Shown: piece after piece, positions 2,063 through 50,860 of the stretch
Numbering within the stretch: position 1 is the first letter of the stretch
How the letters are laid out: each line of letters starts with the position of its first letter
Source of the DNA: a virus
Taxonomy: Duplodnaviria > Caudoviricetes
Reading direction: 5' to 3' (one strand)
IMG/VR virus record: IMGVR_UViG_3300044606_000240
Coordinates: 1-51,301 of that record
Length of the DNA: 51,301 bases
Made by a program: the position numbers and the translations under genes
The notes under the pieces: model-generated
The model's database searches: none
Seen by the model: only the letters and a program-made list of their open reading frames with translations
What the model was told of the DNA's origin: nothing

Positions 2063-2389
2063 TCAAACCGTTGCAGTATTTGTTTCATTGCATTTCGTTA
2101 GTAATTTTAATAATTCATTATACCTGATAACAGCAAATATATCGCCTCTGTCTTCTTTAATAATCTGGACATCTACATTTTCGTTAGGTTTTACAAGTTC
2201 TCCAATATGTTTTCTTCTTTTGGCTTGTATTTTATAATCTTCAAGTAATATATCTACTTCTTCATGCTGTCCCAGTGATAATCCATTGGAAGCGTATGCT
2301 CTTTTGGCATTTAGACCAGCAGCTTTAGCAATATTGACTATATCTCTTTCAAAGTTGCTGCCTTTTCGTTTACTTGCTCTTCCTGTCAT
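2063..2389 (-). CDS. Hjc-like PD-(D/E)xK Holliday junction resolvase
   Basis: SKRKGSNFERDIV...EVDILL...IQAKR pattern; start at 2389 overlaps upstream stop (ATGA). Confidence 0.75.
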   Translation of the reverse strand: MTGRASKRKGSNFERDIVNIAKAAGLNAKRAYASNGLSLGQHEEVDILLEDYKIQAKRRKHIGELVKPNENVDVQIIKEDRGDIFAVIRYNELLKLLTKCNETNTATV

Positions 2390-2568
2390 GGCATTAATTG
2401 TCTCCATTGGCTAATACCAAGAGTTATCTGCAGAGAAAGAAAACTAAATCCTATTTCAAAATGCAGTCCCTCATAAGTACTGCCGGTAAATGTTAATCCA
2501 AATATCCACAATATTGTCATGGATACTGTACTGGCGTCTTTAGTATCGTATCTTTTTATTTTAATCAT
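2386..2568 (-). CDS. small hydrophobic hypothetical protein
   Basis: 60-aa ORF with ATGA overlaps at both ends. Confidence 0.6.
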   Translation of the reverse strand: MIKIKRYDTKDASTVSMTILWIFGLTFTGSTYEGLHFEIGFSFLSLQITLGISQWRQLMP

Positions 2569-3119
2569 GTAATCCTTACCGTTGGTGTAATACGCTTGTT
2601 TAAAGCAGGATGATTCTCCGGTAAATCAGATATCTTGAACTTTCTTACAGATTTGGATAACTTCTTTTTTAGATTATCATCTTTAACAGCTTCAAGCAGC
2701 TGATTATATTCTATCCATGATAGTCCGGGCAGTATATAATTTCCATATTCTTCCTCTATCAATTCTTCATTGATAGATTCAGTAACCATTGAATTAAACG
2801 GATGAAAATTATATTCATGACCTCTTAAAGATTTTCCATCGCAGTGATAATTAAGTCTTGTTTTGATTTTTTCAATTTCTGTTTCTGTTCTTTTAATTGC
2901 TGCATCAACAGCAAGCCCTCTTTGCTTTTTAATCATTTTTAGCTTAACTATATCTGCATCTAATTGTTCAAGTACATGGCCATAGCCATCTATTTTACTT
3001 TTAAGCTCTATTTCATTATTGTTCCAGTATAGCTCAAGAGCTTCATCGAGTACACCTTCATTTTCAATAGTAGCAGCAGACAATTCCTGTCTTTCTGCTA
3101 TTAATTCAGTTAATGTCAT
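2565..3119 (-). CDS. Siphovirus Gp157-like protein
   Basis: helical pattern ELKSKIDGYGHVLEQLDADI..LK; lies in recombination module. Confidence 0.7.
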   Translation of the reverse strand: MTLTELIAERQELSAATIENEGVLDEALELYWNNNEIELKSKIDGYGHVLEQLDADIVKLKMIKKQRGLAVDAAIKRTETEIEKIKTRLNYHCDGKSLRGHEYNFHPFNSMVTESINEELIEEEYGNYILPGLSWIEYNQLLEAVKDDNLKKKLSKSVRKFKISDLPENHPALNKRITPTVRIT

Positions 3120-3466: not shown

Positions 3467-5209
3467 TTATTCCTTTAACTTATAAAATCTGAATGTATCC
3501 ATATTTACTCTAAACATGGCTTTAAAAGGCATTTCATCTCTTGCTTTCAGAGAATTTATTTCTCTGTATAGAGCAGTCTGGCTTCCTTCTATAGAAATTA
3601 CTTTATCTGCCATTTGTTCCATATCAGAATCTCCTTTACCTGAATGAACTCCAAGCTTTTTGGGATTACCTCTGTAATCCATAAGAGCACCTTTGGATAC
3701 ATGATGTACACCCATTACTATTATATTTCTTTCCATAGCAATAGCTTTAATTGTTTCAGCTATTTCTACTAATGGTGACTTTACAGAACTGGTATTCAGT
3801 CTGCCAACTGTATCAAGTACCACTATCTGTGGGGACACTTCATTAATGATTTTCTTTAAATCATCGAGACTTAATCTTCTGGACACATAATTTATATAAT
3901 CAATGGTAGAAGAAAGAGAATTATGATTCTTTTGATAATAATCATCTACTTCTGCTTTATTCATATCATTTTGTATTTGTATAAATCTCCTGTACATTAA
4001 TCTTGATCCTACTTCATTATCTATATAAAGAGCAGGTAAATTAGCTTTAAGTACAAGATTCTGCATCCATGCAGATTTATTAATACCTGTATCTCCTATA
4101 AGTAATACAAATTCCTGCGGATAAATCCAGAAGTCATTCATTCCATGCCATATATTAGCTAAGTTAATAGCCTGGCTTTTTATATCTGAATGTATGAATT
4201 CATGGTATTGTTTTTCCATATCAGCAGCACTTAATATTTCTGGTGTATAATTTTTTGTTTTAAAGTATATACACCTGCTGTCACAATATTTTTGCATTAC
4301 TTCATCATGACAGCTAAACCTATAAGCTTTTTGATATATGTATTTTACTGTTTGTTCAATTTCTTTTTCTTCCATACCGGCAGCCCAGTTTTTTATCATA
4401 GCTGTTATACCATCTAAAGGTATACCTGCACGTCTGAAAGCTGATACCATCCTGATAATCTTTACATGACGTGAACCGGACAAAGCGGGTTCGGTATATA
4501 ACTTTTGCATGCAGGTAACAATAGGGGTGTATTCATCGGCTATTGCTGGCTGCGCAGCATGTGAAGGATAAATAATTTTTGATTTGTATATCGCTGTTTG
4601 ATCTTCTCCTGCTCCAAATTCTGTCTTACGTGGTGTTTTGGCTGCAAGAAGAATATCTTCAATTTTAGCCTGCCGAAATTCTTCATAAGTGAAGCCTGTT
4701 TTGTATAAGTTACTTTTTTGATTTATTGTATTACCGACTCTTATTAGTCTTGCTCCATCGTATATATCATCTGCTTCGGGAAAATATTCAGTCAATGTAG
4801 CTTTAACAATATTTGGCAAATTATCAGAAGGTTCAAATCCGAATATATCTGGTATGACTATATGATAGCCTGAACCGGAAAACCAGATCTTTAAATTATC
4901 TTCATCTGTTTTCCAGTCATCAAGTAATTTATCAATGAACGCTCTTGCTCTTTCCAGTGTAAATTCAGCAGTATTAGAACCTTTATCTATATCGAACAAT
5001 ATACGTTTCAGATAATATTTTCCTTTATATGATCTGATACTTTTATATTTTTGAAAGTGATATACTATATCTTCATCAAATTCATAATAACTGCAATATA
5101 ATACCTGGTTGGTTGATTGTGCCTGTTTTATTAAAGAAGGAAGAGCACTTGTATTAAATACTCTTCCTCTGAACCGAATATCTCCCATAGCTACTTCAAC
5201 ATAACCCAT
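3467..5209 (-). CDS. AEP primase(-polymerase) fused to SF4/RecA-type helicase
   Basis: AEP motifs LFDID and FSGSGYH; Cys-rich helical middle; Walker A-like GDTGINKS, Walker B VVLDT, EQMADKV and KAR motifs. Confidence 0.85.
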   Translation of the reverse strand: MGYVEVAMGDIRFRGRVFNTSALPSLIKQAQSTNQVLYCSYYEFDEDIVYHFQKYKSIRSYKGKYYLKRILFDIDKGSNTAEFTLERARAFIDKLLDDWKTDEDNLKIWFSGSGYHIVIPDIFGFEPSDNLPNIVKATLTEYFPEADDIYDGARLIRVGNTINQKSNLYKTGFTYEEFRQAKIEDILLAAKTPRKTEFGAGEDQTAIYKSKIIYPSHAAQPAIADEYTPIVTCMQKLYTEPALSGSRHVKIIRMVSAFRRAGIPLDGITAMIKNWAAGMEEKEIEQTVKYIYQKAYRFSCHDEVMQKYCDSRCIYFKTKNYTPEILSAADMEKQYHEFIHSDIKSQAINLANIWHGMNDFWIYPQEFVLLIGDTGINKSAWMQNLVLKANLPALYIDNEVGSRLMYRRFIQIQNDMNKAEVDDYYQKNHNSLSSTIDYINYVSRRLSLDDLKKIINEVSPQIVVLDTVGRLNTSSVKSPLVEIAETIKAIAMERNIIVMGVHHVSKGALMDYRGNPKKLGVHSGKGDSDMEQMADKVISIEGSQTALYREINSLKARDEMPFKAMFRVNMDTFRFYKLKE

Positions 5210-5788: not shown

Positions 5789-6364
5789 CTACCAAATCTC
5801 TTCTTCCTTTTTGTCAGCATTAGCTCCAAAGTTGAAGCTGCTTTCATTATTGGTTAAAGCATCCGGCGTATAATCTTTGGGATAACCTTTCTTTAAACTG
5901 TCAAGGAATTCATTCTTCATTGTTCCTGCATCTGTATCAGGAGCAAAGTATGTATTCCATGTTTTATACCTGGGTTTGCCATCCTCTTTTAAACCGGCTA
6001 TATAAGTAATTTTATATAGCTCCTGGTTTGTTATTGATTTTAAATCTTCCAGATTAAATCTGCCGTTATCATCTACTTCTGCAGATATACTGCAGGTATG
6101 TAATAATTTTGCAATAGGAAATGCAGTGCCCCAACCGGTTACAATTCCTTTTTCGTCACGCTTATAATTACCTGCAAGCTGGATAGTCCAGTTTTCTTCT
6201 TTACCTGCATTGATTGTCAGTTCAAGTAATATATCTCTTGTATCGTCAAAATATTGTGCATTGTATTTTATATTGGCATCCATTATAGTAAACTTCTGGG
6301 CGTATACCCCATCCATAAGTTTTAATCCATTGTTGCTGCCAATATTATCAGTTCTTAATCCCAT
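5789..6364 (-). CDS. putative single-stranded DNA-binding protein
   Basis: follows Sak4-like gene; acidic tail ending EEEIW; AAGGA SD. Confidence 0.55.
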   Translation of the reverse strand: MGLRTDNIGSNNGLKLMDGVYAQKFTIMDANIKYNAQYFDDTRDILLELTINAGKEENWTIQLAGNYKRDEKGIVTGWGTAFPIAKLLHTCSISAEVDDNGRFNLEDLKSITNQELYKITYIAGLKEDGKPRYKTWNTYFAPDTDAGTMKNEFLDSLKKGYPKDYTPDALTNNESSFNFGANADKKEEEIW

Positions 6365-6376
6365 ATCTTTTTCCTT

Positions 6377-7150
6377 TTAAGCTGCTTTAGTTATTGGAAT
6401 TTGAATTTTACTTAATGATTTAAGTGAATAAGTTTTCCCTGTACCAGAGTTTCCAAGAATAAGTATCTTCAATGCAGGATAGCCTTCTGCAAGATTAAAT
6501 AATAATTCAAAATCCTGTGGTATGCAGCCATTATTCTGTGCTGCATATTCAGAGATTTTGTCTATTCTGGATTTGGCATCTCTTCTTTCATCTGCCAGTA
6601 CCTGCCAGAGATATTCTTTTTTACCCGGATTTTTAGGATCACTTTTTACGTGCGTGTATGCTATTATATCAAAATATCTGCCTACCTGCTCTTTCATTTT
6701 ACCTGTTAAACCAGGTACATACCTGATTATACCCAGATCGTCATCTTTTTCAGGTGCTACATGACTGATAATAATAGCATGTTTATCAGTTCTGGTTAAT
6801 AGTAATACCAAATCCTCTACTGCTTCTCCAAGTTCTCCATACTGGGGCAATGTAACTTTGGAACTTGTACCTTTCAATTCTTTTTTCTTATTAGCACTGA
6901 AAGCAGTAATGGAATCAAGCACTTCTATATCAATACCCGGCTTTGTACGCCAGTATTCTTCTTCCACATCTCCAAGAGCATCAGTTGTTTTAATTACTCC
7001 CGGTTTGTGGATGGATGCAAAGAACTCAAAAGCACTTTTAGTCTTAATAAACCTTCTTGGTTTATAACCAAAGTGCTGTTCTATTTGTTCATCGGAACCT
7101 ATTGATTTCAAGCCTCTGTCAAAATCATATACAATTATCTTTGGATTCAT
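6377..7150 (-). CDS. Sak4/AAA_24-family ATPase, circularly permuted
   Basis: IIVYDFDRG, Walker B EVLDSIT, IIISH, YFDIIAY, AKSR; Walker A ILILGNSGTGKT lies at the C-terminus. Confidence 0.8.
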   Translation of the reverse strand: MNPKIIVYDFDRGLKSIGSDEQIEQHFGYKPRRFIKTKSAFEFFASIHKPGVIKTTDALGDVEEEYWRTKPGIDIEVLDSITAFSANKKKELKGTSSKVTLPQYGELGEAVEDLVLLLTRTDKHAIIISHVAPEKDDDLGIIRYVPGLTGKMKEQVGRYFDIIAYTHVKSDPKNPGKKEYLWQVLADERRDAKSRIDKISEYAAQNNGCIPQDFELLFNLAEGYPALKILILGNSGTGKTYSLKSLSKIQIPITKAA

Positions 7151-7159
7151 ATTTCCTTT

Positions 7160-7405
7160 CTATGATGCGAGTAATATTTTTGCTATTGCCCGTTCATGTA
7201 ATTCATTCACTACACTACAATGACGTTTTCGAATATATAGTCCCTGTTCATCACCAACATCAACGGTATAATAATCCACCGCCAGAGGTGGCGGTTCAAT
7301 TCTAAATTTACGCTCATACTGAATTGCTTCTATTACTGAAAACTGTTGATTATTCATGCCGTGATACCAGCATTCAGGTGCTGATCCTATTATTCTGATT
7401 TGCAT
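7160..7405 (-). CDS. hypothetical protein
   Basis: 81-aa ORF in operon orientation. Confidence 0.6.
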   Translation of the reverse strand: MQIRIIGSAPECWYHGMNNQQFSVIEAIQYERKFRIEPPPLAVDYYTVDVGDEQGLYIRKRHCSVVNELHERAIAKILLAS

Positions 7406-7560: not shown

Positions 7561-7806
7561 TTAGTTAATCAGCCTGATACTATTTTGGGCATACTCGTAT
7601 GCTTTGATGTTTACTCTGTCCTTCTCTGAAATTTTTTCTCCTGTTTTAAGTTTGTAAATAGAACTCCTTATATGTTTATCATGTATAATTCGGTTTAATT
7701 CTCTATAGTTAAATTTCTGACATCTAACCATAGTTACAGGATTGGTACATACTTTTTTATTATAAAAAATAGCATCAAACAATTGATTTACCAGGTATTC
7801 TGTCAT
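7561..7806 (-). CDS. hypothetical protein
   Basis: 81-aa basic ORF overlapping peptidase end. Confidence 0.6.
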   Translation of the reverse strand: MTEYLVNQLFDAIFYNKKVCTNPVTMVRCQKFNYRELNRIIHDKHIRSSIYKLKTGEKISEKDRVNIKAYEYAQNSIRLIN

Positions 7807-8698
7807 CTTGATTTTTCTCCTTGTTTATATCAGTTTCGTAAGAGTTATTCCAGCAATCAGGGCAAATACCGTTTTCAAATGCTTCATAATCTTCATCTGT
7901 AAACATTTCTGCTAAAGATATTCTCTTACTGCATACCATGCAGTCAATAAAATGTCTACCATATTTTGTAATTAGTTTAGTAGGTTGAAAATAATATTCA
8001 TCATTATAGTAATCAATACGACTGCTCCATCGCCCGCCGAAGGGCTTATAAGACGGATCATATTCAAATTTGATTTTATTGTATTTATCATAAAATCGTT
8101 TGAACTTTTGCATATTGGCATATATGGTATCTACATCTGCATGTGCATTTAGTGTATGATAATCTTCATATCCAACACCTACATTAACACCAGAACAGCC
8201 AAGATGGCTTAGGGCAGCTATATCTGAAAATGTACCAAATCCTACTTTAAATCCTACAGATTCAAGCTTGGCTTGAAATTCAGGATTTTTATATTGATAA
8301 GTAACTACATCAGAACCTGCTCTATCGAATTCTACCATCCAGTTATATTGCTTTCCGGTTTCAAAATATTCAGCAGTTGATTTACCTCTTTCTTCACCCT
8401 CTGTAAAGAGTATATCGACATTTATACCGAGTTGAGGTAATACATCAAGAATAAGATACACCCCTAATCTGTCGTCAAGAACAGGGGAGAATATCAATTC
8501 ACAATGAGATAACTGTAATATAGAAAAATGCTTTGGTTCACATACTGAATCAAGATGTGCAACTGCAAGTATGTCAGAACCATTATCTTTATGATAATAT
8601 ATGCCTGTCGCTGTTGAATATTTATTTAATCCATACTGACTAAAGTGGTCTGTAGGTGTCTTAAATATTTTCTTCATGATTTTATAGTTAAGTTGCAT
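7775..8698 (-). CDS. M28/M20-like zinc peptidase with C-terminal CxxC pair
   Basis: AHLDSV, LDDRLG, GEERG, EFDR, SDI, YHT metal-binding motifs; CMVC...CPDC. Confidence 0.8.
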   Translation of the reverse strand: MQLNYKIMKKIFKTPTDHFSQYGLNKYSTATGIYYHKDNGSDILAVAHLDSVCEPKHFSILQLSHCELIFSPVLDDRLGVYLILDVLPQLGINVDILFTEGEERGKSTAEYFETGKQYNWMVEFDRAGSDVVTYQYKNPEFQAKLESVGFKVGFGTFSDIAALSHLGCSGVNVGVGYEDYHTLNAHADVDTIYANMQKFKRFYDKYNKIKFEYDPSYKPFGGRWSSRIDYYNDEYYFQPTKLITKYGRHFIDCMVCSKRISLAEMFTDEDYEAFENGICPDCWNNSYETDINKEKNQDDRIPGKSIV

Positions 8699-13684: not shown

Positions 13685-13873
13685 TCCCTAAATATTTTTA
13701 GTTATTTAATTGCAATACCTTCCATTAGTTTGTTATTGGATATTGATTTATTAAAAATAATATGATGGAGCCATGACTAAGTTTACTCGGAGATTTCACA
13801 TTGTTCTGCAATACTTGGTGCACCGTTCTTGCATCTTTTCCTTTCACTGTCTTGCGTCAGAGGACTCCGTCTG

Positions 13874-13946
13874 TAACCCCGAAAGGATTTAAACCTCTGT
13901 TTCCACATTGAGAGTGTGACGTTCTGGATCGCTAAACTACGGGGCT
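13874..13946 (-). tRNA. tRNA-Glu(CTC), non-canonical loops
   Basis: acceptor AGCCCCG/CGGGGTT, D GTTT/GAAC, anticodon TCACA-CTCTCAA-TGTGG, T AGAGG-TTTAAAT-CCTTT; lacks D-loop GG and T-loop TTC. Confidence 0.7.
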
Positions 13947-16818: not shown

Positions 16819-17268
16819 TTATTGTATGCTATTGGATGCAGCCGAAGGCTGCAATTTGAAACATGTACTTATGTTCTCTTTATTCCACTTACCTGACTGT
16901 ATTTGTTTATTTAACTGCCATTTATCAGCATATACTATATTACTAAATTTCATTTGCTGCATACTATCAAGCTGTACTCCACGGTAGTAAATGTTTGTAT
17001 CCAGCTTATTTTTACGTATATAGGCCATATAGTCTTTCTTATTAGCTGCTATTACAAGTATTCTGCTGTTGGCTCTTTGTAATTGTAAAGCTTTATGATA
17101 AGCTTGTTTCTCTTCTTTAGTTCTCTTTCTGACACTTGCTAATAGCTTATTAGCTTCAAGAACTAATTGCTTCCTGTCAGCAGACAAGCCTCTTAATAAC
17201 TCACCTTTATTATAATCAATACCTGTATAAACTCTCATAAATACCTTCCATAATGTTAAATTGGGCAT
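16819..17268 (-). CDS. basic hypothetical protein
   Basis: 149-aa Lys/Arg-rich ORF downstream of the leftward promoter. Confidence 0.55.
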   Translation of the reverse strand: MPNLTLWKVFMRVYTGIDYNKGELLRGLSADRKQLVLEANKLLASVRKRTKEEKQAYHKALQLQRANSRILVIAANKKDYMAYIRKNKLDTNIYYRGVQLDSMQQMKFSNIVYADKWQLNKQIQSGKWNKENISTCFKLQPSAASNSIQ

Positions 17269-17482
17269 AGTATAGCCATTAGACCTAAGTGGTTATATAG
17301 TATGATTTTACCTGAATCATAAAGGGTAATGAGAAGCATTTGACCTACCTAATGCATCCGTCTGGTGGCCAGTACTGGCTGCCTGTCTCATTCCATGTCG
17401 GGTGCCTTGATCCGGCTCGAACTGATACACGAACATGTTTACCACTATTTCAGTGGAAAAGCAGATAAATAAGTTAAAGGCA

Positions 17483-17511
17483 AATATAAGAAAAAATAAT
17501 CTATTTGTCAA
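17483..17511 (-). promoter_or_regulatory. sigma70-type leftward promoter
   Basis: TTGACA-N17-TATATT. Confidence 0.75.
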
Positions 17512-17549
17512 GTACCTCTTAACTTAGATATATTCATTTCAGAGACCAC

Positions 17550-17578
17550 TTGACAATAAAGCTATAAATGCTTATATT
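17550..17578 (+). promoter_or_regulatory. sigma70-type rightward promoter
   Basis: TTGACA-N17-TATATT upstream of first plus-strand gene. Confidence 0.8.
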
Positions 17579-17619
17579 TGTGATAGTTAATATAAAACAC
17601 TTAAAGGAGATTATCGGGA

Positions 17620-17865
17620 GTGAATCTAAATAATAAATTTCAGAGTGCATTATCCGGTATAAAATCCTTAGAGGGACAGTTTAAGGATAGGGTAGAAGCC
17701 GGGAGTAAGAATCCGTTAGATTATCATTATTTCTCATATTTCTCTGGTGTAAGGAATGGATTTAACTTTGTATGGCATGTATTGGATAATCATCTGACAG
17801 AGCAGGAATTTGATGAATTATTCGGAGATTTGACCAAAGCAGATATGAGTACGGAGGAAAAATGA
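17620..17865 (+). CDS. hypothetical protein
   Basis: GTG start, AAGGAG upstream. Confidence 0.7.
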   Translation: MNLNNKFQSALSGIKSLEGQFKDRVEAGSKNPLDYHYFSYFSGVRNGFNFVWHVLDNHLTEQEFDELFGDLTKADMSTEEK

Positions 17866-17956
17866 AAGTACTTCCTTTCCTGTGGATAGCCTTCCTGCTG
17901 ATATTAGCAAAAATACTGGCTAATTGGTTATATGATTTAACCTATAAGAGGAAAAA

Positions 17957-18094
17957 ATGATATACGAATATAAATGTACTGAGTGCGGACATAAGTTTGA
18001 GGTAACAGCTAAGGTAAATGATCCGCCTCCTCAGTGTCCTGAATGTTCTGGTGTTGTAAAGAGATTATTATCAAGGTTTAATTTCAGAGTATAG
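17957..18094 (+). CDS. FmdB-like zinc-ribbon protein (45 aa, not in ORF track)
   Basis: MIYEYKCTECGHKFE...CPECSG..KRLLS; GAGG SD. Confidence 0.85.
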   Translation: MIYEYKCTECGHKFEVTAKVNDPPPQCPECSGVVKRLLSRFNFRV

Positions 18095-18095
18095 T

Positions 18096-18260
18096 ATGGC
18101 AAAGGAAAAGAAGAAACAGTTAAGTAAGAGTGAAGAGGAACAGAGAAAAGCTTTAATGGCAATGACTAAGGAAGAGCTTGTGGATATGTTGCTATTAAGC
18201 TGGAATGTTAAGCAGGAGACGACAGATGGAGATATTGACCAGGAGGATTGGGAAGGGTAG
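18096..18260 (+). CDS. small hypothetical protein (54 aa, not in ORF track)
   Basis: MAKEKKK...LMAMTKEELVDML; starts 1 nt after upstream stop. Confidence 0.6.
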   Translation: MAKEKKKQLSKSEEEQRKALMAMTKEELVDMLLLSWNVKQETTDGDIDQEDWEG

Positions 18261-41971: not shown

Positions 41972-44900
41972 ATGGCTGACCAGCAGTTAGATCTGCTTAA
42001 TGCTCTGTACCAGAGCAATCCTTCCTATTTCAGTGAAGAAGACATTTCATTATTACAAACCAGAAACGAACAGGAGGATATACCTTTCCAAAAGATAGAA
42101 GATACCCGGGTAGTAGAAGATAATCTATGGAATACTGTAAGCAGGGGTATGTTAATGCTACATACAGGTATGCTTGAAGGATTCACTACCTTACCGGTAA
42201 ATGATTGGGTGGGATTAAAACCAAGAAATACAGCAGAGCAATTATTCTCAAGTATAGGACAGTTAATGGGCTTCATTGGTGGTTTTATACCTGGCCCTGG
42301 ATTGCTTGGTAAATTAGGACTTACTTCTGCAGCCAGAGGTATTAGTATGCTGGGCAGAACCGCTAAAGCTGCAAAGATAGCAAGCGAAGGTAAATATTTT
42401 CTGCAATTAAAATCCCTTCCTATGATGGGTGCAGACTTAATGATGAAGGGATTAAATAAAGCTACAGGCGGAGGAGCAGCATTAGAAGCTGTTAAATTCT
42501 TAGGTAAAGGGACTGTGGGACGTAATTTACTTGGGGGTGGATTACACCTTGGATTTGCTTCTGGAATAGCCTCTGCACCTATATATGATCTTTCCTGGGA
42601 TAGTTTCGTAGACAGGAGATTAGAAGGAGCTATTCATGGCGGTATATTTGGTGCTGGTAACAGAGCGATAGGTAACCTTATAGGCAGAGGCGGTAAATTA
42701 GATTTGGGTAAGGTATTATTTAAAGGAGAACCGGATGAACTTATAGCCTTATCCAAAACTGGTTCACAGGTAGCAGCAAAGACCTTAAAAAATCAGGATA
42801 AAATAAATATGTTTGCCAGAGCTTTAAGCAGCAGTTTATTCTTCGGTATGCCTTCTACATTACAGGATTATCCATTAGAATTACAGGTATATGAATATCT
42901 TCTTAATGCTTACTTTGGAGCCAAAGAAATGCCATTAGCACAGAGAACAGCATTAGAATTATCCAGACCATTTGCAAGTAATCCCGTTAAAAGAGATATG
43001 CTATTGAGACCTGAAAAGCATATACCAAATTATGACAATCTGCCAGATGCAGTTAAGAATGAATTGCAGATACAGGCTGAATTTCAGTTTGGTGGTACTG
43101 TAAATGAATTTTATAATAATACAGAGCTTGCTGCTGCTAAAACCGTAGATAAAGTACAGCAGGTATTAGAGACTCAGCTTAATGAAGGTAAAATCAATCA
43201 GAAACAGTATGGTGAGTTATTCAAGAACTGGAGAATCAACCAGGTAGTTGAACAAGCAGCCAAAGAAGGTAAAACAGAAGAAGAAGTACAGCAGAAAATA
43301 ACAGAGAAAACCGAACAGTTAAAAGATCAGCTGGCAGAAGAATCATTTATCAAATCTCAATATGAAGAGCTGATGAACTCTGTTCTAAATAAAGATTTGG
43401 GTGATCCAAACCTGCAGCATCAGTCTATAGTTCAGGGCAATAAAGAGCTGGATGATTTTTACCAGCAATCAGGATTAGCAAGACCATACAGAGAACCATT
43501 CAGAGAAATAAGTAAATGGATTTCTAATAAAAAAGGTATTCTTATTGAAGATGTAGCTTCCCAGGTAGAAATAGAAAAGGCTGTAATTAAAGAAGCACAG
43601 CAGTATTTGGGTAAAAAAGATGCAGGTGAAGCTGAATGGAACAGCTTTAAAGAGAATATAGCCAAACAGGCAAATGCTGAACTGGATGATAACATAACCA
43701 GGGAATTAAGACGTACATGGGTTAAAGTAAAACAATCAGAGCAGAGATTATCTTTATCTGTTAAAGCAGATAATAGCATATCAGAACCATCTGTTATTAC
43801 ACCGGAGGGATTAAAAAGGGTTCCTGAATTTGCTCCAAGACCTATAATGGCAGACTTACTTATACATGAATCCGGCTTGACTACGCTAAGGGAGATAAAG
43901 AACTATGAGCAAAAAGATGGTACTGAAATAGATATATACAGGGCTATAGATGAAGGCCTGTTAACTGATAAAGACCTCATTCTTAAAGCTTATAATACTC
44001 CTTTATATGCAAACCAGGATGGCAAAGTAATTAAACTCGCAGATAATACTGCTATTTACGGAGGAAGGAAAGATGAACCTGTGCTGTTATCTGGCAGATT
44101 CTTAATAGCAAAAGAAGATGCTAATAGAGTCATAGAAGAAGCCAGGCCTTATGTTGGGAAAGATTATCAGAAGGGTTTAGAGAGATTTGGAATAGCAGAT
44201 AAAGAGGCTTATGACCATATATATGCTAATAACATAGAAATGCTCAGACAGTTTAATGGATTTGATACTGTCAGGGAACTGTTTGAAGCTAAAGGTAAGT
44301 TTATAACAGATCCAATAGCATTAACCAAACGCTTCCAGGTATTTAATGACCATTCTCCAAAGCTTGAACCCGGCTATATGAAGGATATAGATGATAACTT
44401 TAAGTTTATTATACTAAATGCCAGGAATAGTGATGGTACATTCCATAGTGAACTTGAAGGTAGTGAATATACTTTCTATGCTAAGGACAAAGATAAGAAA
44501 GTACAGTTATTTAAATATGATGCTCATTTGGATGGTGGTGTATTTGTAAGAGATGATGTATATAATAAAATGGTATCTTATTTTGGTTATGATACCGATA
44601 CATCGTCTGCCAAAGGAGTTCATATATTCAAAGGCGATAGTGGAGAACCAGCCATTGTGGATGGTTATACTCGTTTATGGAGAGGAGAAACGAGTTATGA
44701 GAAAGGTAGTACTAAGGTTCCAGATTGGGTAAAGGATGCCAATAAAGACAAACCCAGGGGAATATTCTTCTCTGCCAGTAAGGAAGAAGCCAATTATTAT
44801 GACCAAAAATTCGGGAATAAGTCTGGTAACATAAGCTATATAGATGTACCTACAGCAGATATAGAAGCATACAGAGCTTCTAACAATGGAGGTAAGCAGT

Positions 44901-47900
44901 ATACAGCACAGGGAATGGCGGTTAAAGAGTTTTTTTTACCAGAAGAATTAGGTGAGGAAAGGATTTCTTACAAAAACAATTCTCAGGGCGGCTTTATAGG
45001 TAAACTTGCATGGCATAAAGCATCTCCTGAATTAACCAAATGGATGACAGAGAATAATATCCATGCGTTTCATTTTGATACTACAGCCAAACAAAGGGGA
45101 GCAAGAGAATCCGCTGACTGGCAGATGAAAGATGGGCAATTCATATTTCCAAAAGGTTTTACTGTATATGACTCACCCTGGGAAAGTGTTTCTGTAAATT
45201 CAGCAGAAGACATACATGGAGCGGTAGAGAAATATCAGAAAATAGCAAAGACTGTTTCTACGAATATAGATGGTTCTACTGAACTGGGAAGAAAAGCACA
45301 AAAAAGCTATATAGACAACTTTGTAAAACCTAAAATATATTCATCCCCGGAAGTATCCAGAGAAATAGCCGGGGCTATTGATTTATATAGTAAAAATAAT
45401 ATAGCAGAAGCAGACAAAATAGCAGATAAAATAGATATAGATTCTATTGGCATGCAAGATAAAATCAGAATACTGAATACCACTAAAGTAGCCAATAAAC
45501 TATGGAAGAAAATAGTAGACGATATACTTAATATTGATCCTGTAGAAGATGATCTAACTTATTTTGACGGTATTATAGAAAATGAAACATTAGAATATAA
45601 AGATGACTTTATTAAGGCTAAAGGTACTGCACAAAGATACCTGGATGCTATTGGAGATAATTTAACTCCCCAGTTATTACAATTACCCGGTATCAGAGAA
45701 TATTATGAAGCTGCATTAAAGAGATATTTTATAGAACATACCATTACTCCGAGAACCAAATATTCAGCAAAGCTTATATTTACTCCGCATGATCCTTTTG
45801 TAACTGAGAAATTAGGAGGTATAAAGCCAGGTTATTATTATGCCAATGATGGATTAAAGAGCAAGATAATACCTACAAGCAAGGGAGAAATGACTCTTGA
45901 AGAGGCATATAAAGCAGTCCCGGATGAATTAGAGCACATGTTTGTGCGTGTACCCACATCTTCTGCTTCTGGTGTAAGATTATTAAAGTTTGGAGGTTTT
46001 ACAGACACAGCAGGTTATGGATTTAAAGTACATCCAGAAGAATATTTTAATATGGATGGTGCTGATAATGATATAGATAGCGCATTTGTATACTTTGATA
46101 TGCCCAAAGAAATAAAAGATTATTATAGAGCACAAAGAGATCAATGGTATGAGAAAGCCAAATATAATGGCAAAGATATAAAAGTATCCAAAGAAGCTAA
46201 ACAAAATCCCGAGTTTCTGGATAAAGAAAATACTCAGCCATTATATAAATTTGATCCGATAAGCTACTTAGAAGTTAATAAATCTGCTTCTCAGGGTAAG
46301 GAACAATTAGGTTATGGTATGTCTACTGGCAACAGACTAAAAGCCATATATGATATGCTAATGAACCAGAAAAGAGGTTATCTCTTCGGCTATACTAAAA
46401 ACGGAGAAGTAGCCTGGAGAGCAAAAATAAATAAGGATAGAAATATTATAGAAGATTTGGTAAGAGATGTGGTTAACTATAGTGCTGATGCTGCTGATGG
46501 TAATAAGCTTAAAGATAAAGATCAGGTACAATCATTGTTATTTAAGAAATTCTTTACCAATATAGAATCTAAAGATAAGAAGGGTATATGGAGACTATTA
46601 TCTCCAACAGCAACAAATAAATTTACAAATAATGAAGGTAAAGAGATAACTTATAGATTATTTAATCTGAAAGCTAATCCAGAATATGCCGCTATGATGA
46701 AGCTGGATTCAGCAGCTAAAGGAAAGGAATATAGATTTGGCAGACCGGCAATCAAATATAAGTTTGAAGATATAATTAAGATATTTAAGGATTACAGAGA
46801 AACATTTGAGAATAAAATACCCAATACCTGGTATGGAGCTATGCATGAACTTGGGACTATGGAATACCAGTATAAAGGCATATCGGGATGGCTGGGAGGC
46901 AGAACTAATCTTGGTGACTGGCTGCAGGAATTTACAGAGAAATGGAATAAAAAGTTAATAAGGAAATATGTCGGTAGATTTGTAGTATCTACTCCTAAAG
47001 AGAACTTATTAAAACAGAGACAGCTATTTATAGACAGACACAGACATTTGTATGGTGAAACTCCATTAGAGCTGCAAAGATTAAATACTACTGCTGACAG
47101 GTATGAATCAGAACTTGCAGCACAGGATTTATATGATAATGCTTCTGCTTTATACTCTATCAGAACCGGAGCTGTATTAGATAAAGTAGTAGATGGAAGT
47201 AAATCGATAACTGAAATCCAGAAAAAAGTAGCTGAGTTCCAGAGAGATTTAGGAAATATACGAAAAGCTAAAAAGAATAATACTGACTATATTAAAAATG
47301 ATGGTATATATAATACAGATAAACTATCCAGAGATGTAACTGAATACTATAAAACATTAACTAACAATCAGCCAGGCAAAGATTACTTCGAAGCTTTACT
47401 ATCTTCCAGCCTCCATATACAGGAAATGTCATTGGCTAAGTATATAGAGAAAGAGATAAGGGAATTAAAGTCTGTTGATAAGGATTCTGAAAGAGCCAGA
47501 GAACTGCGGGATATAATTAAATATAAATCCAAAGAATGGAAGTCTACAAATGCAGATACATTCTTTATGAACCTGGACGTTATATCTGCCAATACAATGA
47601 AGAATATAGCTAATGTATTTCAGAAACTATCAGATGTCACATTCCAGCCTGTAGATTGGAAGAAAGCAGCAACTGCAAGTATAACAGACGCTGGTGGATT
47701 AGCGGAAGTTATAGGTGATGTAAGTAGGGAGAAAGTAGTTATACAGACTGATACAGCCAAAGCTAAAGAATTAGTAGACTCTGTAGATTCTATTCTCAAA
47801 AGAAAATCTGCCATTCTTGAAGCTGGCAAAGATAAGGTATTAAATGCAGAACTGGAAAGTGTTAATAAAGTATTCCAGGATATACTTATACGCAAACCTT

Positions 47901-50860
47901 TTCTAATAGCTAATCTTGAGGACAGGTTAATGTCGTTCGGACAGGAGAGATGGGGAATAGCCAAGCCTTTTAAGGCTCTGACTTTACCAGAATATAAGAG
48001 TTTTGTAAGAGAATTAGCAAGGCTGGATAGAGCCAAAACAAATGGAATGGAATTAGACAAATCTGATTATTACTGGATACCGGAGAGATTCGATGCCAAA
48101 CACAGGCAATATGATTATGGTTATACTGAGTCTGTTATTAAATACTGGAATGGAGAAGGTATTAAGGAAGCTGTAATCAGGGAACCGTTAAGCAGAATGG
48201 GCAAGAATACCAGGTCTCTTATGACTGGCGCTAAAATGAAGGATGAATATGTAGCTGCTGTTCAGAAAAGAATACTTGAGGATTCATATATATCTAAAAT
48301 ACAATCTGATTTAAACAGGCAAATAGCAGGTTCAGGAGATGATTTGTTCTCAATTGCTATTGCAAGAAGAGAAAGTGGTTTAAAGGGAAAAGTATATAAA
48401 GATAATCTCAGACAGGCTGATAAGTTATTTAATGAAAAGTATAAAGATAAAAAATTTAATCTTTCAAAAGCTGATGGTTCTACAGTAGCAAGAACAGCAG
48501 ATGAAATAATAAATGGTATATCTGCGGAAGTAACCAGGCATGCTAAAGAAGCATGGAAACTTGTATTTGATAAAGCAGTCATGGAAAAATGGATTAGTCC
48601 ATATTCTGCAAGTAAAATGATTGATAATTATCAGGGTATAGATTGGCTTGATACAGAAAAAGCTATACCCCAAATTGCAAGCAAATTTATTTCTGGCAGC
48701 AGAGATATACCTTTTGTAACATTAAATGGCATAGATAGGCTTATACATTCTCACATGGCTATGCATCATAATTTCAGTGTATTCGAAGTTGATCCTATAA
48801 CTTCTGCACCAAGATGGGTTACCAGGAGAGCCATAGACCTTAAATTATTTACTGACAGAGTTAACTTTCTGAATGCAAGAGCAGCAGAAACAACTACTGG
48901 CGAAATCACTCTGCCTAATGGAGAGAAACAAGTAATATCTGTGCCTAAATATGCCTGGTTAAGTTACAGAAGTGATTTTACAGATTCAGAAGTATTCAGG
49001 GAATGGCAGAATCATTACTGGCCTCACAGAGATATTCCTAAAAAGTTTATGGAACAGAGGATGCAGGAAGAATTAGTTCAGGCACAGGCAGCTAATGATC
49101 TTAAAACAGTAGCAGATATAAGACTTAAATATGCAAGAGCTTATGGTGATGATATACTTGAAGATGCTGGCAGAACTGAAAATACTCTAAGTGTATTAGA
49201 GGGTGGAGTTACAGAAAAAGAAATGACACAAACACATTTTTTCTCTTCTCCGGGTTCTTTAATGAATAGGGACAAGGAAAATCCCCTGCCTGGTTATAGT
49301 ACCAAATTAAAAGCATGGGTAGATTATGAAACGGGTTTAGCTTCTACATACTGGAATAAATTAACTGCTCTTGTAACAGACTGGAATATAAGACAGTTTA
49401 CACATGAATCTGCTATTGGCAAAAATGATATAGGAAAAGAGAATGCTGTGCAGTGGGAACGCTTTATGCGTAATACAGTAAGAGAGGTATTGGGATATCC
49501 TTCAAGATTTCCAGATAGCTGGATAGATGATCCTGGCTCTAAAATCAAGGGACATCCATATTATTGGTTAACTAATGATTATTGGTTAAGAAAAGGTAAG
49601 ATGGCAGATAAATTTTTTGGTGTGGATAAGAACTCTCCGCAGGCGGTAAAAGATGCTGTTAAAAACAGGAAACTGGCTGCGTTGAGTAATGTAGAAGGTA
49701 AAGCGCAGATGATGTCCTTACTATTTTCTCCAAAATCATTTCTAACCAATCTTATTACAGCCAATATAAACACCGTTATATCTGCTGGCTGGAGATTCCG
49801 TAAAATGGCAAGTGATTTAGCATTGCTAAAGTCCATAAATCCTAAATGGCAGAACTGGTCTGATATAGAAAGAGATATAGATCTGCTTGGCGGTATAGAA
49901 TCCTTTATCAGGAATGAAGCTGCTCTTAGTCAGAGATTTACATCCGAACAGGCTAAAAGGTTTATGGAAAAGGCTATTGCCTATATTAAAAAAGATAAGA
50001 ATCTTAATGATAAATCTTTGTATGAAATAGCCAAAGAAGAAGGATTAACAGAGGAATTCGTTAATACCGGTGCTTATTTTATGCGTAAATCAGAACGTAT
50101 GGGAAGAAGAGCTGCATGGCTTTCTCATTATTTAAAAGCAAGAGAAGTATTAGAAGCCTCTAATTATGCTTTTGAGTGGGATGATCCCTGGCTTATATCT
50201 TTTGCTAATAAAGGGGTTAATGCTACTCAGTTCTTATATAATAGTTCTAACAGACCTGCGTTTACAAGAACTTCGCTGGGTAAGATATTTACAAGGTTCC
50301 AGCTATTTGCATATAACTCCGTTATGTGGAGAAAAGATATAGTAAAACAGGCTGCTGAATCCGGGTGGAATTATAATTCACCCGAGTATCAGAAGTTCCA
50401 GAGAATGGCTACAGCAGATCTATTTGTAATGACATTGGCAACATTACTGCCTGCCAGTTTATTTAATGCTGCTTTGCCTCCTCCATATAATTATCTTAAA
50501 GATTTTACATCTTTCTTATTTGGAGATAAAGAAGAGCAGGAGAAAGCATTCTTTGGTATATTACCATACCCGGCTAATGTAGTACAGCCGATATTTCCGC
50601 CAGCATCAAGATATTTTACTTCCACATTCAGCAGCTTAATGACCGGTGACTGGGATAAGTTTACAGGCTATCATATATGGTCGTGGATGCCATTTGGCAG
50701 GGTAATGAATGATGCAAGAAGGGGATTGGATAACCCGGCTATGTTTATGGAAAGGAACTTCGGTATACCGGTAATTACACTGGCTACCGGCATGAGTAAA
50801 GCAAAGAAGAATTCAGAAGGTAAAGTTAATCTATCTGGTCTTCTCTTTGAGAATCCTTAA
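41972..50860 (+). CDS. giant virion protein, putative single-chain DPBB RNA polymerase with ART-like insertion
   Basis: HLDGGVFV, FVRVP and GADNDIDS (DxDxD, aa 1365-1369); LWRG/FFS/KEF insert; GAGGAG SD. Confidence 0.8.
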   Translation: MADQQLDLLNALYQSNPSYFSEEDISLLQTRNEQEDIPFQKIEDTRVVEDNLWNTVSRGMLMLHTGMLEGFTTLPVNDWVGLKPRNTAEQLFSSIGQLMGFIGGFIPGPGLLGKLGLTSAARGISMLGRTAKAAKIASEGKYFLQLKSLPMMGADLMMKGLNKATGGGAALEAVKFLGKGTVGRNLLGGGLHLGFASGIASAPIYDLSWDSFVDRRLEGAIHGGIFGAGNRAIGNLIGRGGKLDLGKVLFKGEPDELIALSKTGSQVAAKTLKNQDKINMFARALSSSLFFGMPSTLQDYPLELQVYEYLLNAYFGAKEMPLAQRTALELSRPFASNPVKRDMLLRPEKHIPNYDNLPDAVKNELQIQAEFQFGGTVNEFYNNTELAAAKTVDKVQQVLETQLNEGKINQKQYGELFKNWRINQVVEQAAKEGKTEEEVQQKITEKTEQLKDQLAEESFIKSQYEELMNSVLNKDLGDPNLQHQSIVQGNKELDDFYQQSGLARPYREPFREISKWISNKKGILIEDVASQVEIEKAVIKEAQQYLGKKDAGEAEWNSFKENIAKQANAELDDNITRELRRTWVKVKQSEQRLSLSVKADNSISEPSVITPEGLKRVPEFAPRPIMADLLIHESGLTTLREIKNYEQKDGTEIDIYRAIDEGLLTDKDLILKAYNTPLYANQDGKVIKLADNTAIYGGRKDEPVLLSGRFLIAKEDANRVIEEARPYVGKDYQKGLERFGIADKEAYDHIYANNIEMLRQFNGFDTVRELFEAKGKFITDPIALTKRFQVFNDHSPKLEPGYMKDIDDNFKFIILNARNSDGTFHSELEGSEYTFYAKDKDKKVQLFKYDAHLDGGVFVRDDVYNKMVSYFGYDTDTSSAKGVHIFKGDSGEPAIVDGYTRLWRGETSYEKGSTKVPDWVKDANKDKPRGIFFSASKEEANYYDQKFGNKSGNISYIDVPTADIEAYRASNNGGKQYTAQGMAVKEFFLPEELGEERISYKNNSQGGFIGKLAWHKASPELTKWMTENNIHAFHFDTTAKQRGARESADWQMKDGQFIFPKGFTVYDSPWESVSVNSAEDIHGAVEKYQKIAKTVSTNIDGSTELGRKAQKSYIDNFVKPKIYSSPEVSREIAGAIDLYSKNNIAEADKIADKIDIDSIGMQDKIRILNTTKVANKLWKKIVDDILNIDPVEDDLTYFDGIIENETLEYKDDFIKAKGTAQRYLDAIGDNLTPQLLQLPGIREYYEAALKRYFIEHTITPRTKYSAKLIFTPHDPFVTEKLGGIKPGYYYANDGLKSKIIPTSKGEMTLEEAYKAVPDELEHMFVRVPTSSASGVRLLKFGGFTDTAGYGFKVHPEEYFNMDGADNDIDSAFVYFDMPKEIKDYYRAQRDQWYEKAKYNGKDIKVSKEAKQNPEFLDKENTQPLYKFDPISYLEVNKSASQGKEQLGYGMSTGNRLKAIYDMLMNQKRGYLFGYTKNGEVAWRAKINKDRNIIEDLVRDVVNYSADAADGNKLKDKDQVQSLLFKKFFTNIESKDKKGIWRLLSPTATNKFTNNEGKEITYRLFNLKANPEYAAMMKLDSAAKGKEYRFGRPAIKYKFEDIIKIFKDYRETFENKIPNTWYGAMHELGTMEYQYKGISGWLGGRTNLGDWLQEFTEKWNKKLIRKYVGRFVVSTPKENLLKQRQLFIDRHRHLYGETPLELQRLNTTADRYESELAAQDLYDNASALYSIRTGAVLDKVVDGSKSITEIQKKVAEFQRDLGNIRKAKKNNTDYIKNDGIYNTDKLSRDVTEYYKTLTNNQPGKDYFEALLSSSLHIQEMSLAKYIEKEIRELKSVDKDSERARELRDIIKYKSKEWKSTNADTFFMNLDVISANTMKNIANVFQKLSDVTFQPVDWKKAATASITDAGGLAEVIGDVSREKVVIQTDTAKAKELVDSVDSILKRKSAILEAGKDKVLNAELESVNKVFQDILIRKPFLIANLEDRLMSFGQERWGIAKPFKALTLPEYKSFVRELARLDRAKTNGMELDKSDYYWIPERFDAKHRQYDYGYTESVIKYWNGEGIKEAVIREPLSRMGKNTRSLMTGAKMKDEYVAAVQKRILEDSYISKIQSDLNRQIAGSGDDLFSIAIARRESGLKGKVYKDNLRQADKLFNEKYKDKKFNLSKADGSTVARTADEIINGISAEVTRHAKEAWKLVFDKAVMEKWISPYSASKMIDNYQGIDWLDTEKAIPQIASKFISGSRDIPFVTLNGIDRLIHSHMAMHHNFSVFEVDPITSAPRWVTRRAIDLKLFTDRVNFLNARAAETTTGEITLPNGEKQVISVPKYAWLSYRSDFTDSEVFREWQNHYWPHRDIPKKFMEQRMQEELVQAQAANDLKTVADIRLKYARAYGDDILEDAGRTENTLSVLEGGVTEKEMTQTHFFSSPGSLMNRDKENPLPGYSTKLKAWVDYETGLASTYWNKLTALVTDWNIRQFTHESAIGKNDIGKENAVQWERFMRNTVREVLGYPSRFPDSWIDDPGSKIKGHPYYWLTNDYWLRKGKMADKFFGVDKNSPQAVKDAVKNRKLAALSNVEGKAQMMSLLFSPKSFLTNLITANINTVISAGWRFRKMASDLALLKSINPKWQNWSDIERDIDLLGGIESFIRNEAALSQRFTSEQAKRFMEKAIAYIKKDKNLNDKSLYEIAKEEGLTEEFVNTGAYFMRKSERMGRRAAWLSHYLKAREVLEASNYAFEWDDPWLISFANKGVNATQFLYNSSNRPAFTRTSLGKIFTRFQLFAYNSVMWRKDIVKQAAESGWNYNSPEYQKFQRMATADLFVMTLATLLPASLFNAALPPPYNYLKDFTSFLFGDKEEQEKAFFGILPYPANVVQPIFPPASRYFTSTFSSLMTGDWDKFTGYHIWSWMPFGRVMNDARRGLDNPAMFMERNFGIPVITLATGMSKAKKNSEGKVNLSGLLFENP

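Follow-up and report, generated by a model that had tools for sequence, protein, structure and literature searches.

The subject of this analysis is a minus-strand open reading frame (ORF) at positions 6377 to 7150 of a 51,301-nucleotide stretch of DNA (the window), positions 1 to 51,301 of the IMG/VR provirus record IMGVR_UViG_3300044606_000240, which is rated complete and represents a tailed phage remote from isolates. The evidence as a whole is best explained if this gene encodes a true circular permutant, fixed in evolution, of the recombination ATPase Sak4 of phages, a reading that we hold to be very probable. The ORF encodes 257 amino acids (aa), with an ATG start and an AAGGAA ribosome-binding site ahead of it. 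The protein begins with MNPKIIVYDFDRG and ends with ...ALKILILGNSGTGKTYSLKSLSKIQIPITKAA; its Walker A motif, GNSGTGKT, occupies residues 233 to 240 (6431 to 6454) within the segment LKILILGNSGTGKTYSL (residues 227 to 243, 6422 to 6472), leaving 17 residues before the stop codon.

The Pfam family AAA_24 (PF13479) matches the ORF with an E value of 2.6e-13 (50.7 bits, cut-off 27) in two stretches, the best of which aligns residues 3 to 195 with profile positions 23 to 194 of 195. In a six-frame search of the record, profile positions 22 to 194 fell at 6566 to 7147 of the minus strand (37.2 bits) and positions 3 to 23 at 6389 to 6472 of the same strand (16.4 bits, E 2.2e-4), downstream in the same open frame; this search returned no further AAA_24 match. 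PHROGs gave the same picture with two families, both annotated "Sak4-like": phrog_124 covers residues 4 to 219 (profile 65 to 255 of 382, E 2.6e-21), and phrog_2872 covers residues 226 to 248 (profile 2 to 24 of 219, E 7.8e-6). No NCBIfam family was found for this protein (P0001) or for its relatives P0023 and P0041. The swapped order is thus confirmed: a canonical Sak4 has Walker A at the N terminus and then the core, whereas here profile positions 22 to 194 precede positions 3 to 23. Because the C-terminal piece matches the start of the family profiles, it is the family's own N-terminal element and not a chance P-loop. An earlier reading made from the letters alone (the sequence-only reading) had placed Walker A at about 6431 to 6470, in the last 30 or so residues, and had described a protein that opens at the strand normally following the P-loop, with Walker B and the later motifs in the usual order. 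These descriptions hold: the motif lies where it was placed, the profile from position 22 or 23 onward comes first, in agreement with the canonical relative P0111 (see below), and positions 22 to 194 form one stretch. The elements of the gene, with strands (E) and helices (H) of the AlphaFold2 model described below, are as follows.

6377 to 7150, minus strand: whole ORF (257 aa and stop), very probably a circularly permuted Sak4/AAA_24 RecA-like ATPase (Pfam, PHROGs, six-frame search).
7118 to 7138, minus strand: residues 5 to 11 (IIVYDFD), the first strand, canonically placed after helix α1, with the acidic residues D9 and D11 (E5-10).
6911 to 6928, minus strand: residues 75 to 80 (IEVLDS), presumed Walker B strand with D79 (E75-79).
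6761 to 6781, minus strand: residues 124 to 130 (AIIISH), core strand ending at H130 (E124-129).
6473 to 6517, minus strand: residues 212 to 226 (QDFELLFNLAEGYPA), linker of a short helix and a loop from the old C terminus to the old N terminus (H214-220).
6407 to 6472, minus strand: residues 227 to 248, strand β1 (KILIL), Walker A, and helix α1, relocated to the C terminus (profile matches; E228-232, H241-248).

We take IEVLDS to be Walker B because of where it falls in the AAA_24 match and in the fold, and the roles of D11 and H130 are likewise presumed from RecA-family mechanisms.

The junction was read against canonical P0111, which has ...GKTYSLRTLPERMRPALLIDCDRG around helix α1 and the next strand (in longer readings, ...GSGKTYSLRTLPERMRPALLIDCDRG... 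and ...YGPTGSGKTYSLRTLPERMRPALLIDCDRGSRAL...) and terminates in ...IPQDYGIYV, its end being 6 residues past the equivalent PQDY. The permutant ends in ...GTGKTYSLKSL... (...GNSGTGKTYSLKSLSKIQIPITKAA), starts with ...PKIIVYDFDRG... (MNPKIIVYDFDRGLKSI), and has ELLFNLAEGYPALKILILG behind its IPQDF. This comparison puts the cut in the loop after helix α1 and the old ends on either side of a short joining linker; the motif xQD[FYWL] is present in 65 of the 86 permuted proteins, and a median of 21 residues lies between it and the first glycine of Walker A. The chain opens at the strand normally found after α1, runs through Walker B and the remaining core, crosses an approximately 13-residue linker, and closes with strand β1, the Walker A loop, and helix α1; the cut corresponds to the α1/β2 loop, with the former termini fused.

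The effect of undoing the permutation was measured with a canonical hidden Markov model (HMM) of 245 positions, built from 51 canonical relatives. The 86 permuted proteins were scored in their native form, in a re-permuted form opened 8 residues ahead of the glycine of Walker A, and, as a control, cut at mid-length. The scores of P0001 were as follows.

P0001, native: HMM 38 to 227 on residues 4 to 220 and HMM 14 to 37 on residues 226 to 249, 122.8 + 22.3 bits.
P0001, re-permuted: a single domain, HMM 15 to 226, 150.6 bits.
P0001, mid-length cut (control): best domain, 70.3 bits.

In the set as a whole, 79 of the 86 proteins had a higher best-domain score after re-permutation (mean 100.9 to 123.4 bits; control, 63.8), and 81 had a higher full-sequence score. 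The sequence-only reading had named a failure of re-permutation to improve the family alignment as grounds for giving up the permutation, and the alignment did improve.

The arrangement is shared by a family. A word-based search retrieved 22 homologues of 249 to 284 aa from several sources, with 36 to 65% identity and 95 to 99% query coverage, and in their alignment (A1) the C-terminal residues K228, G233, G236, G238, K239, and T240 (GxxGxGKT) are invariant. When 1.84 billion cluster representatives were searched with a profile, 1934 matched at E ≤ 0.001, of which 174 reached ≤ 1e-10 and 27 reached ≤ 1e-30; the 150 top matches and the word-search homologues, two overlapping sets, made up the 171 proteins examined. 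Walker A was C-terminal only in 94 of them, N-terminal only in 61, nowhere in 7, and otherwise arranged in 9. A count that did not depend on the motif, made with an HMM of A1, found 80 colinear full-length proteins, 36 in canonical order (the profile tail lying N-terminal of the core), and 55 partial or other; Walker A came after the core in all 80 colinear proteins, and within the last 55 residues in 79. Seven further IMG/VR loci (L001 to L005, L009, and L010) contain full-length members with 28 to 40% identity to their queries. The 86 permuted proteins are 22 to 64% identical to P0001 (median, 28%), and among them the core is well kept (D9 in 76, D11 in 78, D79 in 85, H130 in 86, G150 in 83, D161 in 83, and W182 in 81). 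Walker A K239 and T240, Walker B D79, and the acidic pair D9 and D11 are intact, as in Sak4.

Two permuted members differ at their ends. In P0093 (312 aa), the one colinear protein whose Walker A lies outside the last 55 residues, the motif is followed by an acidic tail of about 60 residues ending in ...DEIDVF, which resembles an SSB (single-stranded DNA-binding protein) tip fused to the recombinase itself. In P0104 (270 aa), Walker A is broken (GTGNS...) and gives way to unrelated sequence, probably through a frameshift in the contig or because the gene is a pseudogene there.

AlphaFold2, run with a 23-row alignment, modelled the protein as a single domain with a mean predicted local distance difference test score (pLDDT) of 89.2 and a predicted template modelling score (pTM) of 0.87. 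Its elements include E5-10, E75-79, E124-129, E162-170, H214-220, E228-232, and H241-248, and the last three blocks have pLDDT values of 93, 89, and 88. At 257 aa in one domain, without RecA's C-terminal domain or the N-terminal domain of Rad51, the protein consists of a RecA core only. A Foldseek search of BFVD returned one full-length twin, A0A516LUR7 (30% identity, template modelling [TM] scores 0.82 and 0.85), so that at least one permuted family member is already present, unnamed, in UniProt/BFVD; the twin was followed by canonical phage AAA_24/RecA-like recombinases at TM scores of about 0.5 to 0.6 (60 matches at E ≤ 0.001). By sequence, the nearest solved structure is chain "ORF016" of PDB 8rc5 (E 1.2e-5), which, in the available part of its description (PMC11846896), is Sak4 from the staphylococcal phage 52A, seen in filaments together with Stl2 and ATPgammaS.

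A DSSP strand requires hydrogen bonds and the chain was modelled alone; residues 228 to 232 are therefore paired within their own chain in the model. The model thus suggests that the C-terminal strand inserts in cis, which would restore a normal RecA-like ATP site. The sequence-only reading had posed completion of the sheet in cis or in trans as the question for structure prediction, and the monomer model speaks for the former by its intrachain pairing, but a swapped form is not representable in it. In the trans arrangement, the tethered β1/P-loop/α1 element would enter a neighbouring protomer, and ATP sites would form only on oligomerization, giving a domain-swapped filament. The relocated element does sit at the chain end behind a linker, which is the geometry required for domain swaps and is compatible with the monomer model, and canonical Sak4 forms filaments in the accessible text of PMC11846896. 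Set against this, AlphaFold2 places the strand confidently in its own chain (pLDDT 88 to 93, pTM 0.87), and the linker is short, as the median of 21 residues from QD[FY] to the Walker A glycine already includes the strand. Moreover, in the part of PMC5928155 available to us, the Sak4 of HK620 is monomeric on elution when DNA is absent, and the core of a canonical relative thus folds by itself. We consider trans completion improbable. If it were true, nucleotide binding would be physically coupled to polymerization on single-stranded DNA (ssDNA) in a RecA-like recombinase, and the protein might evade host or satellite factors that recognize canonical Sak4 filaments.

The permuted gene lies inside a minus-strand replication/recombination block of a phage that has a terminase, a portal, and a head protein, the terminase being at most 26% identical to that of any deposited phage. 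Downstream of the permuted gene, the block contains the following genes.

5789 to 6364, minus strand: adjacent gene of 191 aa, with an oligonucleotide/oligosaccharide-binding (OB)-fold-like core and a disordered acidic tail with an aromatic end (alignment, AlphaFold2, Foldseek, hhalign).
3467 to 5209, minus strand: primase-helicase, PriCT_1 plus AAA_25/DnaB-like (family matches).
2565 to 3119, minus strand: Gam/Gp157-like gene, weak (phrog_253, E 1.6e-5; PF05565, E 0.0055, below cut-off).
2063 to 2407, minus strand: RusA-like Holliday junction resolvase (phrog_244, E 1.9e-13).

Two small ORFs separate the 191-aa gene from the primase-helicase, and the L001 counterpart of the Gam/Gp157-like gene scores above the PF05565 cut-off. 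In all eight loci with a full-length permuted gene (the window, L001 to L005, L009, and L010), an ORF of 191 to 235 aa directly follows it, and an ORF of about 600 aa follows this partner (family-tested in the window and L009). Copies of the partner lie at the following positions.

Partner genes: L001, 6785 to 7453; L002, 2262 to 2939; L004, 4148 to 4801; L005, 6788 to 7447; L009, 4773 to 5480.

The partner tails are acidic and carry a terminal aromatic residue (...EEEIW, ...DDLMF, ...DDLLF, ...DDTTPF, and ...EQVPF). A word-based search with the 191-aa neighbour found itself and one relative of 76% identity; homology among the partners is seen in alignment A2, with 20 invariant columns in 7 rows, and hhalign aligned A2 with the L009 partner at 95.9% probability (E 5.3e-9, 163 columns). 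Pfam, PHROGs, and NCBIfam contained no family for the partner, and neither an SSB family nor DUF669 matched it (DUF669 sought at E ≤ 10 or E ≤ 1). The AlphaFold2 model of the 191-aa protein is moderate (pLDDT 72.7), with residues 1 to 13 and 173 to 191 disordered, and its best PDB matches are the OB-fold ssDNA binders PrgE and RPA subunits, weak at E 2.9e-4 to 1e-3 and TM 0.29 to 0.45. The partner may thus be a putative ssDNA-binding protein of a phage SSB family not yet described. Complex prediction for the permutant and its 191-aa neighbour gave a score of 0.00 and a mark of 0.32, which speak neither for nor against binding. The SSB and Gp157 neighbours of the sequence-only reading survive in part: the acidic-tailed, OB-fold-like neighbour is there but belongs to no recognized SSB family, and the Gp157 candidate, Gam-like by PHROG (1.6e-5), stands three genes further on and misses the PF05565 cut-off.

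A canonical arrangement is seen at L006 (6010 to 7341), where a Sak4 of 224 aa with an N-terminal Walker A (AAA_24 profile 3 to 187) is followed by a 213-aa protein ending in ...DDDEFPF; the partner family shows no similarity to this protein (hhalign probability 0.1). Just upstream of the permuted Sak4 in the phages of L001 to L005 are a ThiF/E1-like gene (PF00899, E 3.7e-14, as tested in L001) and an ORF of 240 to 289 aa; the coordinates are given below.

ThiF/E1-like gene and ORF: L001, 4596 to 5264; L002, 45 to 704; L004, 1853 to 2521; L005, 4491 to 5156.

The window carries an M28-like peptidase (7775 to 8698) at the ThiF/E1-like position. Elsewhere in the window, a tRNA-Glu gene (anticodon CTC) lies at 13873 to 13946 on the minus strand inside the early-gene block, and a 2962-aa ORF occupies 41972 to 50860 of the plus strand at the end of the structural module. 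A strand switch and a reversal of the GC (guanine plus cytosine) skew occur at about 17000 to 18200, near where minus-strand early/replication genes of 30 to 34% GC meet plus-strand structural genes of 36 to 40% GC.

By analogy with canonical Sak4, the permutant would bind and anneal ssDNA in an ATP-dependent manner, would probably form filaments, and would probably cooperate with its OB-fold-like, acidic-tailed neighbour in a prophage replication/recombination module. In the accessible portion of the HK620 study (PMC5928155), Sak4 anneals ssDNA in an ATP-dependent reaction that is stimulated via the last six residues of the neighbouring SSB. Most likely, then, the family does the same job as canonical Sak4 with a permuted ATPase and a new kind of SSB-like partner. 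The protein could instead be permuted and yet no longer a Sak4-type annealase, having become a regulatory or defence-evading ATPase of the replication module. That its partner belongs to no known SSB family, and is unrelated to the neighbour of the single canonical Sak4 locus compared, would fit such a change; against it, all core motifs are conserved, and the order of recombinase, acidic-tailed OB-like protein, primase-helicase, Gam-like protein, and RusA mirrors canonical Sak4 modules. We regard this alternative as quite unlikely, more so than trans completion.

The least credible explanation, to which we attach next to no weight, is an artefact, be it misassembly, a tandem duplicate with a frameshift, or read-through of an in-frame TAG into a longer protein, for which the prompt is an 81-aa ORF just upstream in the same frame and against which stand the 80 colinear full-length relatives with the same start point. 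This ORF (7160 to 7405, minus strand) is separated from the permuted gene by only TAG and three codons. As the sequence-only reading had stated, it contains no P-loop (no GK[ST]) and no family match; it is not conserved upstream in L001 to L005, L009, and L010, and the relatives share the start residue of the permutant, so it was rejected as a decayed N-terminal P-loop segment. Nothing suggests TAG recoding, since the other long ORFs of the window read unbroken with table 11. Since the same architecture recurs in 80 of 171 proteins from independent assemblies, at identities down to 22%, and in the seven IMG/VR loci, misassembly, which the sequence-only reading had counted as fatal to its proposal, is excluded. 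Its proposal of a natural circular permutant is supported by the swapped segments, the re-permutation gain, and the inherited architecture.

Several points weigh against our reading of the gene. The sets of 86 and 51 proteins were chosen by their Walker A motif, which makes Walker A conservation inside them partly circular (the count of 80 is motif independent), and the canonical HMM came from proteins retrieved with the permuted profile. Insertion in cis is read from a DSSP strand and pLDDT in the monomer model, with its inability to represent a swapped arrangement. Foldseek matches in the PDB are weak, led by RAD51 paralogues and RecA with a best E of 1.1e-3 and a query TM score (TMq) of at most 0.41; this is expected of an order-dependent aligner given a permuted query, and it is no positive proof. 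The SSB nature of the partner is drawn from a moderate model and weak OB-fold matches. A rapid maximum-likelihood tree, confined to the core region and built from 86 permuted and 51 canonical rows, needs two label changes, and its best split (Shimodaira-Hasegawa-like approximate likelihood ratio test, 94) sets the 86 permuted and 23 canonical rows, including P0111, apart from the other 28 canonical rows. The 171 proteins, which take in the best 150 of the 1934 profile matches, include no duplication intermediate carrying the P-loop at each end. The single candidate flagged as such, P0055, has a chance motif.

The strongly supported branches of the same 137-row tree force only one label change. 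In a subsample taken by stride (P0001 and every third permuted representative, 23 rows; every second canonical protein, 26 rows), all permuted rows fall on one side, joined by one long-branch canonical row, and the constraint to a permuted clade gave a likelihood 12.64 above that of the free search and a P value of 0.823 in the approximately unbiased test, a result that belongs to this stride-chosen subsample and that, being above 0.05, does not prove the clade. A single origin is thus most likely: it fits these sequences best and is not rejected, though it is unproven. Probably a canonical gene was duplicated in tandem and in frame, and the outer segments were then lost, a route that we infer because permutations generally arise in this way; fused or duplicated relatives of 451 to 2000 aa were absent at E ≤ 0.001, which is weak evidence.

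Compared with the Sak4/AAA_24 proteins of HK620 and 52A (8RC5), the permutant is likewise an ATPase of a RecA core only, with all core motifs, a Pfam match above the cut-off, and a sequence match to 8rc5, and it too lies in a recombination module beside an acidic-tailed putative ssDNA-binding protein. It differs in that β1, Walker A, and α1 come last instead of first and in that its partner is neither a classical SSB nor a DUF669 protein. Descent from Sak4/AAA_24 combined with the lack of an N-terminal Walker A leads us to class it as a permuted subfamily. The Healer module of Pseudomonas phage Phi47 consists, in the available part of its description (PMC13687109), of Gp63 (a DUF669 SSB) and Gp64 (an AAA-domain recombinase), which repair breaks in phage DNA by recombination; to that extent it is alike in being a two-gene pair of an ssDNA-binding protein and a Sak4-like recombinase in the replication region, but here the partner has no DUF669 match and the ATPase is permuted. 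RadB, the Rad51 paralogues, and RecA supply the best fold matches among solved structures (RAD51D/XRCC2-type chains and RecA, probability 0.97 to 0.99), but at TM scores of at most 0.41 and 10 to 15% identity, and in them the order is canonical and further domains are present.

That circular permutation can mark whole families of P-loop NTPases is textbook knowledge for GTPases, of which we take the YlqF/YawG/RsgA "YRG" family and cpRAS to be the circularly permuted examples. These are TRAFAC-class proteins cut elsewhere (G4-G5-G1-G2-G3 or G3-G4-G5-G1-G2), whereas the present family is a RecA-like ATPase cut right after α1, with its P-loop at the extreme C terminus. What the two share is a natural, family-wide permutation of a P-loop NTPase in which fold and motifs are kept, as far as the accessible part of PMC2430557 describes it. 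Neither a permuted Sak4 nor a permuted RecA-like ATPase came up in our search of the literature, in which subscription journals were thinly covered, so that absence from print is not proven; nor did the parts of the Sak4 papers available to us, including PMC5928155, contain a statement on permutation. The phrase "circularly permuted" in PMC10853773 concerns methylases and is irrelevant here. When five permuted proteins were compared with 50,697 GenBank phage records by tblastn, no family member was found; P0001 had one partial canonical match, and the other four queries had none.

The family keeps the most conserved and earliest-folding element of its fold, β1 and the P-loop, at the extreme C terminus at identities down to 22%, and the RecA core thus tolerates such a topology in nature. 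Nature has thereby provided an experiment on the order of folding and on what the placement of termini does to filament interfaces. Annotation pipelines show permutants as N-terminally truncated AAA_24 proteins, which recognition of the permutation corrects. Together, the permutant and its OB-like partner define a recombination module of uncultivated phages, one that could be tried for recombineering.

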